20,033 nucleotides of DNA from Escherichia coli (GCF_003334315.1 NZ_QOWR01000069.1); one strand, 5' to 3'. Shown: positions 9,030 to 19,630, counted from the stretch's first letter. A program made the numbers and translations. Notes: generated from the sequence alone by a model not told the origin.

Positions 9030-9176
9030 GATTCGCCTGAACATGCCCTTTTTTCGTAAGTAAGCAACATAAGCTGTCACGTTTTGTGATGGCTATTAGA
9101 AATTCCTATGCAACAACTGAAAAAAAATTACAAAAAGTGCTTTCTGAACTGAACAAAAAAGAGTAAAGTTAGTCGC

Positions 9177-9285
9177 GTAGGGTACAGAGGTAAGATGTTC
9201 TATCTTTCAGACCTTTTACTTCACGTAATCGGATTTGGCTGAATATTTTAGCCGCCCCAGTCAGTAATGACTGGGGCGTTTTTTA
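9177..9285 (+). ncRNA. spf: Spot 42 small regulatory RNA
   Basis: Sequence gtagggtacagaggtaagatgttctatctttcagacc... ending in the terminator hairpin ccccagtcagtaatgactgggg plus T-run, recognised as Spot 42; -10-like taaagt at 9164-9169. Confidence 0.9.
9195..9242 (+). CDS. spfP: 15-aa small protein encoded within Spot 42 (SpfP-like), MFYLSDLLLHVIGFG
   Basis: ATG at 9195 preceded by AGAGG; 15 sense codons then TGA, translated by hand. A dual-function Spot 42 peptide has been reported. Confidence 0.5.
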   Translation: MFYLSDLLLHVIGFG

Positions 9286-10313: not shown

Positions 10314-10556
10314 ATAGAGCGAGGACGCTAACAGGAACAATGACTCAGGATGAGGGTCAGGAGCGCCAGGAGGCGAAGACAGAGGATTGTCAGGAAGACA
10401 AACGTCCGGAGACGTAATTAAACGGAAATGGAATCAACACGGATTGTTCTGGCTAATGGAAAAACAGGGTGTGTTGGCGGCCTGCAAGGATTGTAAGACC
10501 CGTTAAGGGTTATGAGTCAGGAAAAAAGGCGACAGATTACTCTGTCGCCTTTTTTC
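10314..10556 (+). ncRNA. csrC: CsrC, CsrA-sequestering sRNA
   Basis: About 243 nt with 14 GGA triplets, mostly as AGGA/CAGGA, far above chance; -10-like taaagt at 10301-10306; ends in terminator aaaaaaggcgacag...ctgtcgcctttttt; sits between engB and yihI. 5' end approximate. Confidence 0.85.
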
Positions 10557-10624
10557 TTTGCTTGCTTTCTGTTAGATTCCGCCGCAAATCTATACTGAAT
10601 AAAACGGCTAAAAGACGAACCATT

Positions 10625-11131
10625 ATGAAACCATCTTCACCATCACGCAGCAAAGGTCATGCAAAAGCGCGTCGCAAAACGCGCGAAGAGCTGAATCAGG
10701 AAGCTCGTGACCGCAAGCGTCAGAAAAAACGTCGTGGTCATGCGCCGGGCAGCCGCGCAGCGGGCGGTAACACCACGTCAGGCAGCAAAGGCCAGAACGC
10801 ACCAAAAGATCCACGTATTGGCAGTAAAACCCCTATTCCATTGGGCGTGACTGAAAAAGTCACCAAACAGCACAAACCGAAGAGTGAGAAACCTATGCTT
10901 TCACCGCAGGCGGAGTTGGAATTACTGGAAACGGATGAGCGTCTGGATGCGCTGCTGGAACGTCTGGAAGCAGGCGAAACCCTGAGTGCCGAAGAGCAAT
11001 CCTGGGTGGATGCTAAACTGGATCGTATTGATGAGTTGATGCAGAAACTCGGCCTCTCTTATGACGATGACGAAGAAGAGGAAGAAGACGAGAAGCAAGA
11101 AGACATGATGCGTCTGCTGCGGGGCAACTAA
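10625..11131 (+). CDS. yihI: Der GTPase-activating protein YihI
   Basis: Start at [18 protein letters not shown]...; highly basic N-terminus and acidic D/E-rich C-terminus. The ORF-track upstream extension from 10469 overlaps the CsrC terminator and is rejected. Confidence 0.9.
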
Positions 11132-11143
11132 CGGATTGCCGCC

Positions 11144-11317
11144 ATGGGCCTTCCCGTTCTGCTGATAACCCTTCCGGTTATATGTTATCTGGTGTGGTTA
11201 TTCGTTAAACTACAGCGGTTGTCGCGGCGACAAAAGTGGCTGCGCAACCGGCTGATGACCCGAAACGGGCATCCGCCGGTACGCCGTAGCCGCCAGAGAC
11301 GCCATCGGAAGGAGTGA
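11144..11317 (+). CDS. Candidate 57-aa small membrane protein ORF (hypothetical): MGLPVLLITLPVICYLVWLFVKLQRLSRRQKWLRNRLMTRNGHPPVRRSRQRRHRKE
   Basis: Hand translation of the yihI-hemN intergenic region. Hydrophobic N-terminal helix plus Arg/Lys-rich tail; TGA stop (11315-11317) overlaps the hemN SD. Weak SD of its own; below the ORF-track size cutoff. Confidence 0.3.
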   Translation: MGLPVLLITLPVICYLVWLFVKLQRLSRRQKWLRNRLMTRNGHPPVRRSRQRRHRKE

Positions 11318-11319
11318 GC

Positions 11320-12693
11320 ATGTCTGTACAGCAAATCGACTGGGATCTGGCCCTGATCCAGAAATATAACTATTCCGGGCCACGATACACCTCGTACCCG
11401 ACCGCGCTGGAGTTTTCAGAAGACTTCGGCGAACAGGCGTTTTTACAAGCCGTGGCGCGCTATCCTGAGCGTCCATTATCTCTCTACGTACATATCCCGT
11501 TCTGCCATAAGCTTTGTTACTTCTGCGGTTGCAATAAGATTGTTACTCGCCAGCAGCACAAGGCCGATCAGTATCTGGACGCGCTGGAGCAAGAAATCGT
11601 CCATCGTGCACCGCTGTTCGCCGGGCGTCACGTCAGCCAATTGCACTGGGGCGGCGGAACGCCGACGTATCTGAATAAAGCGCAAATCAGCCGCCTGATG
11701 AAGCTGCTGCGCGAAAACTTCCAGTTCAATGCCGATGCGGAGATTTCGATCGAAGTCGATCCGCGGGAAATCGAACTGGATGTACTCGATCATTTACGCG
11801 CCGAAGGCTTTAATCGCCTGAGCATGGGCGTGCAGGACTTCAACAAAGAAGTGCAACGTCTGGTTAACCGCGAGCAGGATGAAGAGTTCATCTTTGCACT
11901 GCTTAACCATGCGCGTGAGATTGGTTTTACCTCCACCAACATCGACCTGATTTACGGCCTGCCGAAACAGACGCCGGAGAGTTTCGCCTTTACCCTGAAA
12001 CGTGTGGCGGAGCTGAACCCCGATCGTCTGAGTGTCTTTAACTACGCGCATCTGCCGACCATTTTTGCTGCTCAGCGCAAAATCAAAGATGCTGACCTGC
12101 CGAGTCCGCAGCAAAAACTCGATATCCTGCAGGAAACCATCGCCTTCCTGACGCAATCGGGCTATCAGTTTATCGGTATGGATCACTTTGCCCGTCCGGA
12201 TGACGAGCTGGCGGTGGCCCAGCGTGAAGGCGTGCTGCATCGTAACTTCCAGGGCTACACCACTCAGGGCGATACCGATCTGCTGGGGATGGGCGTTTCC
12301 GCCATCAGCATGATTGGCGACTGCTACGCGCAGAACCAGAAAGAGTTGAAGCAGTACTATCAGCAAGTGGATGAACAAGGCAATGCGCTGTGGCGTGGTA
12401 TTGCGCTAACGCGTGATGACTGTATTCGCCGCGATGTGATTAAGTCGCTCATCTGCAACTTCCGTCTGGATTACGCCCCTATTGAGAAACAGTGGGATTT
12501 GCACTTCGCTGATTACTTTGCGGAAGATCTCAAGCTGCTCGCCCCGTTAGCAAAAGATGGGCTGGTGGATGTGGATGAGAAGGGAATACAGGTGACGGCG
12601 AAAGGTCGCTTGCTGATCCGCAACATTTGCATGTGCTTTGATACCTATCTGCGCCAGAAAGCGCGGATGCAGCAGTTCTCTCGGGTGATTTAA
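11320..12693 (+). CDS. hemN: Oxygen-independent coproporphyrinogen III oxidase HemN (radical SAM)
   Basis: Radical-SAM CxxxCxxC motif (CHKLCYFC); start taken at ATG 11320 (MSVQQIDW..., 457 aa) rather than the ORF-track GTG at 11314. Confidence 0.95.
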   Translation: MSVQQIDWDLALIQKYNYSGPRYTSYPTALEFSEDFGEQAFLQAVARYPERPLSLYVHIPFCHKLCYFCGCNKIVTRQQHKADQYLDALEQEIVHRAPLFAGRHVSQLHWGGGTPTYLNKAQISRLMKLLRENFQFNADAEISIEVDPREIELDVLDHLRAEGFNRLSMGVQDFNKEVQRLVNREQDEEFIFALLNHAREIGFTSTNIDLIYGLPKQTPESFAFTLKRVAELNPDRLSVFNYAHLPTIFAAQRKIKDADLPSPQQKLDILQETIAFLTQSGYQFIGMDHFARPDDELAVAQREGVLHRNFQGYTTQGDTDLLGMGVSAISMIGDCYAQNQKELKQYYQQVDEQGNALWRGIALTRDDCIRRDVIKSLICNFRLDYAPIEKQWDLHFADYFAEDLKLLAPLAKDGLVDVDEKGIQVTAKGRLLIRNICMCFDTYLRQKARMQQFSRVI

Positions 12694-12700
12694 ATAGTGA

Positions 12701-12739
12701 ATGGCGCTTCGTTTACAAAGTAGAAAACGAAAGCGCCAT
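12701..12739. terminator. Imperfect hairpin just after the hemN stop, putative terminator
   Basis: Inverted repeat atggcgcttcgttt / aaacgaaagcgccat flanking a 10-nt loop; no strong T-run on the + strand, so efficiency is uncertain. Confidence 0.4.
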
Positions 12740-12760
12740 CAATGTGCTGAGAACAAGATT

Positions 12761-12797
12761 GCCTGATGCGGCGCTGGTCGCGTCTTATCAGGCCTAC
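12761..12797. repeat. REP element
   Basis: gcctgatgcggcgctggtcgcgtcttatcaggcctac, a classic REP palindrome shape. Confidence 0.7.
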
Positions 12798-12830
12798 GAC
12801 TTTCTCCGCATCCGGCATAAACAACGAGCT

Positions 12831-12941
12831 TCAGCTAAACAGCCCAATCATCGCGGCACACAGCACGGCAGCAACGGCAGTTTGCGGTGTGTGGCTGTCA
12901 ACTGCGCCACTCGATACCAGATTAATTATTGATTCCAGCAT
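12831..12941 (-). CDS. yshB: 36-aa small protein (MLESIINLVSSGAVDSHTPQTAVAAVLCAAMIGLFS), YshB-like
   Basis: Hand translation of the minus strand; GGGGAGAG SD 5 nt upstream of the ATG; length and position between hemN and glnG match what I recall for yshB. Below the ORF-track cutoff. Confidence 0.6.
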   Translation of the reverse strand: MLESIINLVSSGAVDSHTPQTAVAAVLCAAMIGLFS

Positions 12942-17350: not shown

Positions 17351-17439
17351 CGCACCATCGTGCAAAAGGGCTGCACCACGATGTGAATGTTGCACCAATA
17401 TAGTGCTTCAATGGAAACATTAAGCACCATGTTGGTGCA
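17351..17439 (-). promoter_or_regulatory. Cluster of NtrC enhancer binding sites upstream of glnAp2
   Basis: Repeated TGCACC/GGTGCA half-sites: tgcaccaatatagtgct (17391-17407), agcaccatgttggtgca (17423-17439), weaker copies at 17351-17388. Confidence 0.65.
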
Positions 17440-17590
17440 ATGACCTTTGGATAACCCTTTTTATGCTCCGTGAAAGCGATCACAAAGGGACTCTGCAATA
17501 CTTGTTTGCGGAGGATGTTTGTGATCCTGTTTTGTAGTGCGATTAATCCGTGTACAATAACGCGCTATTTCTAATGCCTGAGGCAAAGTT

Positions 17591-19414
17591 GTGATCGAAA
17601 AATTGCGTAATATCGCCATCATCGCGCACGTAGACCATGGTAAAACCACCCTGGTAGACAAGCTGCTCCAACAATCCGGTACGTTCGACTCTCGTGCCGA
17701 AACCCAAGAGCGCGTGATGGACTCCAACGATTTGGAGAAAGAGCGTGGGATTACCATCCTCGCGAAAAACACCGCTATCAAATGGAATGATTACCGTATC
17801 AACATCGTTGATACCCCGGGGCACGCCGACTTCGGTGGTGAAGTTGAACGTGTAATGTCCATGGTAGACTCAGTGCTGCTGGTGGTTGACGCATTTGACG
17901 GCCCGATGCCGCAAACGCGCTTCGTAACCAAAAAAGCGTTTGCTTACGGCCTGAAGCCGATTGTTGTTATCAACAAAGTTGACCGCCCTGGCGCGCGTCC
18001 TGATTGGGTTGTGGATCAGGTATTCGATCTGTTCGTTAACCTCGACGCGACCGACGAGCAGCTGGACTTCCCGATCGTTTACGCTTCTGCGCTGAACGGT
18101 ATCGCGGGTCTGGACCACGAAGATATGGCGGAAGACATGACCCCGCTGTATCAGGCGATTGTTGATCACGTTCCTGCGCCGGACGTTGACCTTGACGGTC
18201 CGTTCCAGATGCAGATTTCTCAGCTCGATTACAACAGCTATGTTGGCGTTATCGGCATTGGCCGCATCAAGCGCGGTAAAGTGAAGCCGAACCAACAGGT
18301 CACTATCATCGATAGCGAAGGCAAAACCCGCAACGCGAAAGTCGGTAAAGTGCTGGGCCACCTCGGTCTGGAACGTATCGAAACCGATCTGGCGGAAGCT
18401 GGCGATATCGTGGCGATCACGGGCCTTGGCGAACTGAACATTTCTGACACCGTTTGCGACACGCAAAACGTTGAAGCGCTGCCGGCACTCTCCGTTGATG
18501 AGCCGACCGTTTCTATGTTCTTCTGCGTTAACACCTCGCCGTTCTGCGGTAAAGAAGGTAAGTTCGTAACGTCTCGTCAGATCCTGGATCGTCTGAACAA
18601 AGAACTGGTACACAACGTTGCGCTGCGCGTAGAAGAAACCGAAGACGCCGATGCGTTCCGCGTTTCTGGTCGTGGCGAACTGCACCTGTCTGTTCTGATC
18701 GAAAACATGCGTCGTGAAGGTTTCGAACTGGCGGTATCCCGTCCGAAAGTTATCTTCCGTGAAATCGACGGTCGTAAACAAGAGCCGTATGAAAACGTGA
18801 CGCTGGACGTTGAAGAACAGCATCAGGGTTCTGTAATGCAGGCGCTGGGCGAACGTAAAGGCGACCTGAAAAACATGAATCCAGACGGTAAAGGCCGCGT
18901 ACGTCTCGACTACGTGATCCCAAGCCGTGGTCTGATTGGCTTCCGTTCTGAGTTCATGACCATGACTTCCGGTACTGGTCTGCTGTACTCCACCTTCAGC
19001 CACTACGACGACGTACGTCCGGGTGAAGTGGGTCAGCGTCAGAACGGCGTACTGATCTCTAACGGTCAGGGTAAAGCGGTCGCGTTCGCGCTGTTCGGTC
19101 TGCAGGATCGCGGTAAGCTGTTCCTCGGTCACGGTGCAGAAGTTTACGAAGGTCAGATTATCGGTATTCATAGCCGCTCTAACGACCTGACTGTAAACTG
19201 CCTGACCGGTAAGAAACTGACCAACATGCGTGCTTCCGGTACTGACGAAGCCGTTGTTCTGGTTCCGCCTATCCGCATGACTCTGGAACAAGCTCTGGAG
19301 TTCATCGATGATGACGAACTGGTAGAAGTGACCCCGACCTCTATCCGTATTCGTAAACGTCACCTGACGGAAAACGATCGTCGTCGCGCCAACCGCGCAC
19401 CGAAAGACGATTAA
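17591..19414 (+). CDS. typA: Ribosome-associated translational GTPase BipA/TypA
   Basis: 607 aa, GTG start with GAGG SD; G-domain motifs [18 protein letters not shown]; EF-G-like domain architecture. Confidence 0.97.
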
Positions 19415-19431
19415 TTTCGTTTTTTAGTCAT

Positions 19432-19464
19432 AAAAAACCTGCCAGCGATGGCAGGTTTTTTTTT
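19432..19464 (+). terminator. Rho-independent terminator of typA
   Basis: A-run, stem cctgcca / tggcagg with 4-nt loop, then nine T. Confidence 0.85.
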
Positions 19465-19630
19465 GCCTGTCGTGAGCACTCAGCAATGCGAGTATCTCCC
19501 TTATAAGTCTGTGGTTACGTCAATAGAGAGCTTTGTCACAATTATCTGCAAAGTCATACGCCGTTAATTGCTTTCTTTTTTGGCGTAAGCGTAAGATGCC
19601 TCATCTGGTTTAAACCAAAAGGATTAAACA

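Follow-up and report, generated by a model that had tools for sequence, protein, structure and literature searches.

The spacer between yihI and hemN in Escherichia coli is filled by an open reading frame (ORF) that reference annotations omit, and the question raised by this locus is whether this ORF is a gene and, if so, whether its peptide, the act of its translation or the RNA in which it lies is what has been kept. The locus was analysed in a stretch of 20,033 nucleotides of E. coli DNA, hereafter the window, in which the gene order is Spot 42, CsrC, yihI, spacer, hemN and yshB (Table 1). The spacer measures 188 nt. The ORF comprises 57 codons plus a TGA and encodes the peptide MGLPVLLITLPVICYLVWLFVKLQRLSRRQKWLRNRLMTRNGHPPVRRSRQRRHRKE; its coordinates, length and peptide, as first proposed in a first-pass annotation made from the sequence alone, were borne out by an ORF listing. 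The yihI TAA ends at position 11131 and is followed in the same frame by CGG ATT GCC GCC and then by the ORF start codon, in agreement with the earlier description of a start four codons past the yihI stop and in the yihI frame. At the other end, the last two sense codons of the ORF, AAG GAG (Lys-Glu), make up the Shine-Dalgarno (SD) sequence of hemN (AAGGAG, 11309-11314), and the hemN ATG at 11320 follows the ORF TGA after 2 nt. The first-pass annotation had this distance right; it had also placed the TGA inside the hemN SD, and the TGA in fact sits in the spacer between SD and ATG. Its composition of the 36-residue tail was likewise correct for the three Lys residues and one too high for Arg, of which there are 12 and not 13.

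Table 1. Positions in the 20,033-nt window of the small ORF, its predicted protein and RNA elements, and neighbouring features.
Feature	Position	Strand	Remarks
Spot 42	9167-9285	+	Rfam match at gathering score
CsrC	10314-10567	+	Rfam match at gathering score
yihI (Der GTPase-activating protein)	10625-11131	+	Upstream gene; TAA 12 nt 5' of the ORF start
Small ORF	11144-11317	+	ATG here; GTG in MG1655 and, it appears, most E. coli
Predicted transmembrane (TM) segment, codons 2-21	11147-11206	+	GLPVLLITLPVICYLVWLFV; mean Kyte-Doolittle 2.4
Motif C-Y-L-x-W-L-x-x-K-L-x-R-L-S, codons 14-27	11183-11224	+	Kept across Enterobacterales
Polybasic tail, codons 22-57	11207-11314	+	12 Arg, 3 Lys, 1 Glu; net +14
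Hairpin H2, predicted	11189-11218	+	UGUGGUU / AACUACA stem, 8-nt loop
Hairpin H3, predicted	11220-11246	+	GC-rich; UUGUCGCGGC ... GCUGCGCAA
Hairpin H4, in the variable tail	11247-11280	+	GC-rich; in 66/66 distinct sequences
hemN ribosome-binding region	11307-11319	+	SD GGAAGGAG (11307-11314), ORF TGA (11315-11317), then GC
hemN (oxygen-independent coproporphyrinogen III oxidase/dehydrogenase)	11320-12693	+	Downstream gene
yshB	12831-12941	-	36-aa small membrane protein, identical to K-12 YshB
ES222	17402-17509	+	Rfam match at gathering score
STnc370	19399-19467	+	Rfam match at gathering score

The segment 10600-11500 of the window is 100% identical to CP53 and has a match of at least 95% in all 5426 complete genomes. 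Over 241 nt the sole difference between MG1655 and the window is the ORF start, GTG instead of ATG. GTG appears to be the majority start allele in E. coli and ATG the minority one: an exact match to the window over 11116-11175, the region around the start, was present in only 308 of the 5426 genomes, and most genome alignments cover the ORF from its second base onwards. Neither MG1655 nor CP53 nor any of the 20 RefSeq genomes listed of the 5426 has an annotated feature under the ORF, and the description of the ORF as uncalled thus held in every record inspected.

Other differences between these genomes were observed in the surroundings. In the window yihI measures 507 nt, as compared to 510 nt in MG1655, owing to a one-codon indel in an N-terminal Ser-rich stretch (10625-10660). 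The spacer between hemN and yshB (window region 12694-12941) is 137 nt long versus 228 nt in MG1655, with one REP-like unit fewer. In CP53, a PGAP pseudogene ('hypothetical protein, frameshifted; internal stop') is annotated approximately 120-285 nt upstream of yihI (1241-1407 of the fetched locus, L002); it occupies the place of csrC in MG1655 and the window, and is probably an annotation artefact.

Dinucleotide shuffling of the spacer produced an ORF with a start codon and a length of at least 57 codons in 0.7% of cases, and a stop-free frame of at least 61 codons, in any frame, in 24%. With such frequencies a single sequence is only suggestive, and the weight of the argument rests on comparative data. 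Loci were therefore fetched through YihI as the query, which leaves the sample unbiased with respect to the ORF, and comprised 80 loci from 80 Enterobacteriaceae species, yielding 81 sequences together with the window. hemN followed yihI in all 80 fetched loci, and the spacer was exactly 188 nt long in 64 of the 81 sequences. Indels or stops in close relatives had been named at the outset as evidence that would speak against the ORF. Between the yihI stop and the hemN SD the ORF frame was uninterrupted in 79 of the 80 species, with stops in the other two frames, and all four indels within the ORF body were multiples of three (-6, -3, -3 and +3 in loci L022, L043, L033 and L082, respectively). 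Length differences that were not multiples of three were confined to positions 5' of the start or at the hemN junction.

One putative exception, a frameshifted Salmonella enterica homologue (P0018), was rejected. The assembly in question (L091, GCA_018142025.1) carried 71 indels in 2 kb when compared to S. arizonae, with yihI, the ORF and hemN broken alike, showing the frameshift to be a sequencing error and the assembly to yield spurious 'proteins'; the ORF was intact in S. arizonae and S. diarizonae. The sole other break in frame was a 1-nt T insertion at approximately position 2544 of the Leclercia adecarboxylata NCTC13032 locus (L026; CTTATTAACC vs. CTTATAACC), which is either a sequencing or assembly error or a strain-specific lesion (pseudogene). 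Two other Leclercia retained an intact ORF.

When a segment of hemN was translated in the wrong frame it still retained 50-70% amino acid identity across these genera. Raw amino acid identity is accordingly no evidence of coding at such distances, and tests based on substitution classes were used. Substitutions were inferred by parsimony on a neighbour-joining tree built from hemN and classed as synonymous (S), nonsynonymous (N) or stop-creating. In the ORF frame no stop-creating substitutions were found, whether over the whole ORF (S = 268, N = 250, ω approximately 0.34), in its first half (S = 82, N = 69, ω = 0.32) or in the tail (S = 125, N = 145, ω = 0.42). The same nucleotides read in the +1 frame yielded 45 stop-creating events (S = 97, N = 387, ω = 1.24) and in the +2 frame 30 (S = 108, N = 378, ω = 1.38). 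Arg-rich frames can arise by chance in a GC-rich region, a caveat attached to the original proposal, and these shifted-frame controls answer it. Changes in the ORF frame numbered 330 at third codon positions, 162 at first and 180 at second positions, and a two-fold third-position excess was seen in this frame only. For the flanking genes, the last 147 nt of yihI gave S = 516, N = 157 and three stop-creating events (ω = 0.07), and the first 150 nt of hemN gave S = 466, N = 124 and none (ω = 0.08). The three events in yihI reflect the handling by parsimony of gapped or multiply changed codons, not broken genes. The ω of the ORF, at 0.34, is far above the 0.07-0.08 of its neighbours.

These counts were set against a null in which each observed substitution was reassigned at random among sites carrying the same base (1000 simulations). 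Synonymous events numbered 309 as compared to 203±12 expected, and stop-creating events 1 as compared to 29±5 expected; neither value was attained in any of the 1000 simulations. The one stop event is artefactual and arises because this test treats multi-hit codons one base at a time. No comparable excess was seen in the shifted frames. The second codon, Gly2, was frozen at positions 1 and 2 and free at position 3. Judged by these substitution patterns, selection on the ORF reading frame is real in both of its halves.

To extend the comparison beyond Enterobacteriaceae, 1.84 billion representative proteins were screened with a profile built from 31 diverse members. Homologues of 56-71 aa were found in Serratia, Rouxiella/Rahnella, Dickeya, Pantoea, Photorhabdus, Edwardsiella and Erwinia, and in all eight loci fetched the homologue was flanked by a PF04220 YihI gene on one side and a radical-SAM/HemN_C gene on the other. 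The motif C-[YFW]-L-x-x-[LM]-x-x-K-L-[QRW]-[RC]-L-S was shared across families. The segment N-terminal to it varied in sequence and kept its hydrophobicity (best 19-mer Kyte-Doolittle 1.9-2.9), and the tail carried a charge of +10 to +20 in all homologues. In four of the eight distant loci the ORF was kept out of the yihI frame: in Dickeya its start overlaps the yihI stop by 1 nt (TGATG), and in Photorhabdus, Erwinia and Pantoea the two are separated by 11, 67 and 56 nt, respectively. On this sequence evidence the ORF has retained its place between yihI and hemN throughout the order Enterobacterales, including five other families. In GenBank, UniProt and, for at least one protein, RefSeq, some homologues bear the name 'high mobility group protein Z' or 'hypothetical protein'. 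The records bearing the former name are true homologues at the same locus (Edwardsiella ictaluri ACR70988.1, Photorhabdus WP_445495960.1). No HMG-box was present among the weak Pfam-A matches of the 31 Enterobacteriaceae members scanned, and the name seems to be an automatic label that the basic tail prompted and that was then propagated.

The predicted protein has an uncharged N-terminus, a TM helix, a juxtamembrane helix and what would be a disordered tail of approximately +14. By the positive-inside rule the N-terminus is expected to be periplasmic and the tail cytoplasmic. AlphaFold2 returned one helix spanning residues 3-41 and a disordered end, with pLDDT values of 77-88 over the membrane segment and a mean of 68. 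The middle of the tail was variable in sequence and constant in charge. The protein had no significant match in Pfam, NCBIfam, PHROG or PDB sequences, and no related solved structure was found; in Pfam-A the E. coli protein matched no family even at E ≤10, and a scan of it together with 30 other Enterobacteriaceae members gave nothing below E = 0.019. The proposal that the ORF encodes a single-pass small membrane protein was strengthened by frame retention across the 80 species, the synonymous excess, the in-frame indels and the distant homologues, which keep the helix and the basic tail at the same locus despite diverged DNA. The ORF is very probably a protein-coding gene, as far as the pattern of sequence change can tell.

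A further layer of constraint, which the first-pass annotation had not noted, was found at the nucleotide level. In yihI and hemN third positions were 69-73% conserved (per-column conservation), with the usual 3-periodicity, whereas within 11156-11251 all three codon positions were 92-97% conserved. The block 11183-11246 was almost invariant across the 81 Enterobacteriaceae sequences and largely kept in other families, the series TGTTATCTG-TGTGGTTATT-TAAACTA-TGTCGCGGC being largely intact in Serratia, Edwardsiella, Photorhabdus, Pantoea and Rouxiella. The rare codons CTA, TTA, TCG and ATA were frozen even in other families. Synonymous changes per synonymous site amounted to 3.1 in the first half of the ORF, 9.9 in its tail, 13.8 in hemN and 18.4 in yihI; the synonymous sites of the first half were 3-4 times more conserved than those of hemN. 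The shared motif (codons 14-27) coincides with the most conserved nucleotide block, and in this best-conserved stretch protein and nucleotide conservation are inseparable because the synonymous sites are nearly frozen too.

RNA folding was consistent with part of this constraint. The E. coli spacer folded better than all 200 of its shuffles (z = -3.1), and the covariation score of the alignment was above all 500 shuffles. Across the 81 sequences 82-89% of alignment cells were paired, compared to 35-49% with slid partners, the former figure being inflated by derivation of the structure from the same sequences. The predicted H2 has a nearly invariant stem and a more variable loop, with one pair going from U-A to U-G and C-G, and the stem of H3 was 99% paired and invariant around a variable loop. 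H4 (mean MFE -18.6 kcal/mol, mean z -3.7) lies approximately 40 nt upstream of the hemN ATG, and 8 of its 13 pairs had changed on both sides, i.e. compensatorily. It is followed by GGUACGCC without a U-run and is therefore not an intrinsic terminator; stability, processing or pausing are possible roles. Third-position changes per site in the first half of the ORF were 1.6 in predicted stems and 4.5 outside stems, as compared to 10.5 in hemN. RNA structure thus accounts for part, not all, of the frozen synonymous sites, and TGTTAT (11184-11189) is conserved beyond what the predicted hairpins explain. TAAACT (11206-11211) could be a -10 hexamer; it has no usable -35, and a scan for sigma-70-like promoters between yihI and hemN was negative. 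Rfam 15 gave nothing at gathering score in the spacer, its sole match at E ≤10 being a spurious lncRNA, and on inspection the conserved block did not fit IscR, Fur, ArcA or sigma-54 motifs.

The ends of the ORF are conserved in a manner that bears on how it would be translated. A canonical start was kept in 79 of the 81 sequences, at one of two positions. In 41 sequences (Escherichia, Citrobacter, Salmonella, Kosakonia and others) it was an ATG or GTG at the E. coli position, 6-24 and usually 12 nt past the yihI stop. In approximately 38 sequences (Enterobacter, Klebsiella/Raoultella, Leclercia and others) it was a TTG 3 nt past the yihI stop, three of these having a GTG at the first position as well. 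No SD-like sequence was present 5' of either start position in any genus among the 81 sequences. Lacking an SD, the ORF would need coupling to yihI for initiation, and the absence of an SD combined with a mostly non-ATG start predicts very low expression. The ORF stop was TGA in 65 sequences and TAA in 16, and in all 81 Enterobacteriaceae sequences it lay close to the hemN ATG, at 2 nt in 76 and at 3 nt in 5. In other families the stop lay 2-11 nt before the hemN ATG, or the ORF overlapped hemN by 37 nt; this overlap, found in Serratia and Pantoea, means that a stop in the ribosome-binding site (RBS) is not universal. No terminator-like site was found in 11132-11319, i.e. between yihI and hemN.

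The first-pass annotation had raised translational coupling or uORF control, and the layout of the locus fits this idea. Serial translational coupling from yihI through the ORF to hemN is suggested by the missing SD, by a weak start just past yihI, by an ORF stop that falls in the hemN RBS and by the lack of a terminator, and we consider it likely. Ribosomes leaving yihI would probably re-initiate on the ORF with low efficiency, and those terminating on the ORF would be passed to the hemN start. The unpaired probability of the hemN RBS was 0.25 with the native upstream sequence as compared to 0.38 with shuffled upstream sequence (mean z -1.25), and was lower in 77% of species; in Escherichia the hemN RBS was no more sequestered than with shuffled upstream sequence. 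The conserved hairpins constrain synonymous sites and, in most genera, appear to lower accessibility of the hemN RBS, and translation of the ORF might perhaps help to open hemN. A possible internal hemN promoter would leave the ORF untranslated on most hemN mRNAs. We also considered a candidate anti-SD element, CCUUCCG (11170-11176), facing the hemN SD. The two were 97% paired, with invariant positions or one-sided changes only, CCTTCC gave way to CCTTAC or to unrelated sequence in other families, and RNAalifold on the 81 sequences favoured another long-range pairing; no weight is placed on the element.

Several explanations compete with that of a protein-coding gene, and the frame statistics separate most of them from it. 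A chance ORF in a GC-rich spacer could draw on the frequency of long stop-free frames among the shuffles (24%), but a frame of at least 57 codons with a start was rare (0.7%) and all of the comparative evidence stands against it; this explanation is already refuted and we give it next to no credence. It is extremely unlikely that the ORF serves as a C-terminal extension of YihI produced by read-through of the yihI TAA. The shared frame that invites this idea is found in E. coli and altogether in 73 of the 81 sequences (gaps of 6, 9, 12 or 24 nt), but in the remaining 8 the ORF is out of the yihI frame (gaps of 7, 10, 11 or 13 nt), as it is in Dickeya, Photorhabdus, Erwinia and Pantoea where it is still kept, and its start codon is conserved. 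These out-of-frame loci exclude read-through as the conserved mode of expression. A non-coding structured leader and/or a hemN promoter, the open frame being a by-product, is very unlikely as well. It would explain why 11183-11246 is conserved beyond coding need, why third positions in stems change so much less than those of hemN (1.6 vs. 10.5), why CTA, TTA, TCG and ATA are frozen even in other families and why H4 is maintained by covariation, and it could make use of TAAACT as a -10 hexamer. However, it is already contradicted by the absence of stop-creating substitutions when some 29 were expected, by the two-fold third-position excess in the ORF frame only, by the length of all four internal indels, by retention of a start codon in 79 of 81 sequences and by protein-level matches extending to distant genera; neither a sigma-70-like promoter nor an Rfam family was found to support it in the spacer.

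The alternative closest to the data is that of a regulatory upstream ORF (uORF), in which the act of translation opens the RNA and hands ribosomes to hemN and the peptide has no job of its own. Such a device would be expected to end in the hemN RBS, to lack an SD and to enclose conserved hairpins, all of which the ORF does, and the reduced accessibility of the hemN RBS in 77% of species, the only moderately low ω and the freely varying middle of the tail are in line with it. For this purpose an open frame alone would suffice, yet the hydrophobic N-terminus and the basic tail are kept in distant genera, Gly2 shows the classical pattern with codon positions 1 and 2 frozen and position 3 free, and both halves of the ORF have fewer nonsynonymous changes than expected. 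We therefore regard a jobless peptide as unlikely. The uORF and protein readings are compatible with, and do not exclude, each other. What the evidence favours, with a probability that we put at about 0.72, is a genuine gene for a 57-residue TM protein that forms the middle cistron of yihI-ORF-hemN and is subject to RNA-level constraint. The cross-Enterobacteriaceae comparison of synonymous and nonsynonymous change suggested in the first-pass annotation came out in its favour (ω approximately 0.34 in the ORF frame, 1.24-1.38 in the shifted frames): purifying selection acts on the reading frame and on the character of the protein, synteny is conserved, and an RNA-level constraint overlaps both. 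A more elaborate version, which we consider distinctly doubtful, is a bifunctional Enterobacterales leader in which RNA hairpins gate hemN translation or stability and a membrane-anchored polybasic peptide acts on HemN or on YihI/Der. The peptide could then tether the soluble radical-SAM HemN to the membrane near its physiological electron acceptor or HemG, or alternatively act on the upstream-encoded YihI/Der ribosome-assembly system.

The existence of the ORF is already catalogued by one large computational survey (Fesenko et al. 2024, 'The Cryptic Bacterial Microproteome', PMC11188072), and reference annotations omit it. There it is Escherichia_21857 / NC_000913.3_ORF.50430 (MG1655 4051868-4052039, VGLPVLL...HRKE), assigned to a cluster of 1920 members labelled 'TRANSMEMBRANE', and forms one row among the 67,297 clusters of Entero67K, the set of intergenic small ORFs under purifying selection. 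A dN/dS of 0.54 within Escherichia is given, as is an RNA log2FC of -2.5 under oxygen deprivation in E. coli 536. For MG1655, Table S4 of the survey lists an Onc112 TIS count of 8 and 116 footprints covering 88% of the ORF, with start reads given for the Onc112 data set only and not for retapamulin; this constitutes weak ribosome-profiling support. The main text of the survey does not mention the ORF. Order-wide yihI/hemN synteny, the two alternative starts, the junction with the hemN RBS and the overlapping RNA constraint are new relative to that work. The ORF was absent from the main text of Weaver et al. and from one supplementary file of Stringer et al., and none of the papers searched named yihI and hemN together.

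Escherichia coli K-12 is the best-annotated bacterium, and yet the gene is missing from MG1655, from CP53 and from the 20 genomes listed of the 5426. Its conservation extends across an order, and it lies directly before hemN, a gene of anaerobic haem biosynthesis. If the protein is made, it is one more small membrane protein in need of a partner, and HemN is the obvious candidate; to our knowledge, no physiological electron acceptor of HemN has been identified. If translation of the ORF controls hemN, it would add an unrecognised layer of regulation to the haem pathway and make yihI-ORF-hemN a single translational unit. The locus further provides a clean case of a coding sequence with synonymous sites frozen by RNA-level constraint, and such sites can mislead gene finders and dN/dS screens.

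Small membrane proteins of the YshB, AcrZ, CydX and MgtS type usually bind a larger membrane or membrane-associated protein. The predicted product shares with these E. coli inner-membrane proteins a length of less than 60 aa, one hydrophobic helix and a charged tail, and like them it is conserved in enterobacteria and was missed by gene callers. It has no sequence relation to them, and PF28018, the YshB family, was not among the weak matches of the 31 members. Its tail is unusually long and basic (+14), and the ORF differs further in having no SD and in being embedded in conserved RNA structure. Small single-pass inner-membrane proteins of E. coli were reportedly described by Hemm et al. 2008 and in later work. 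With attenuators of the trpL, pheL and hisL type the locus has in common a small ORF in a structured leader directly upstream of a biosynthetic gene; unlike these leaders, it has no intrinsic terminator after any hairpin and no regulatory codon run, and its much longer ORF terminates within the downstream RBS. A nearer parallel in layout is uof-fur, said to have been described by Vecerek et al. 2007 as a small upstream ORF whose translation the downstream gene needs. Both are short ORFs that end at the downstream start region and have a weak initiation signal of their own, whereas in the yihI-hemN spacer the physicochemical character of the peptide is conserved, which is not required of a pure coupling device.
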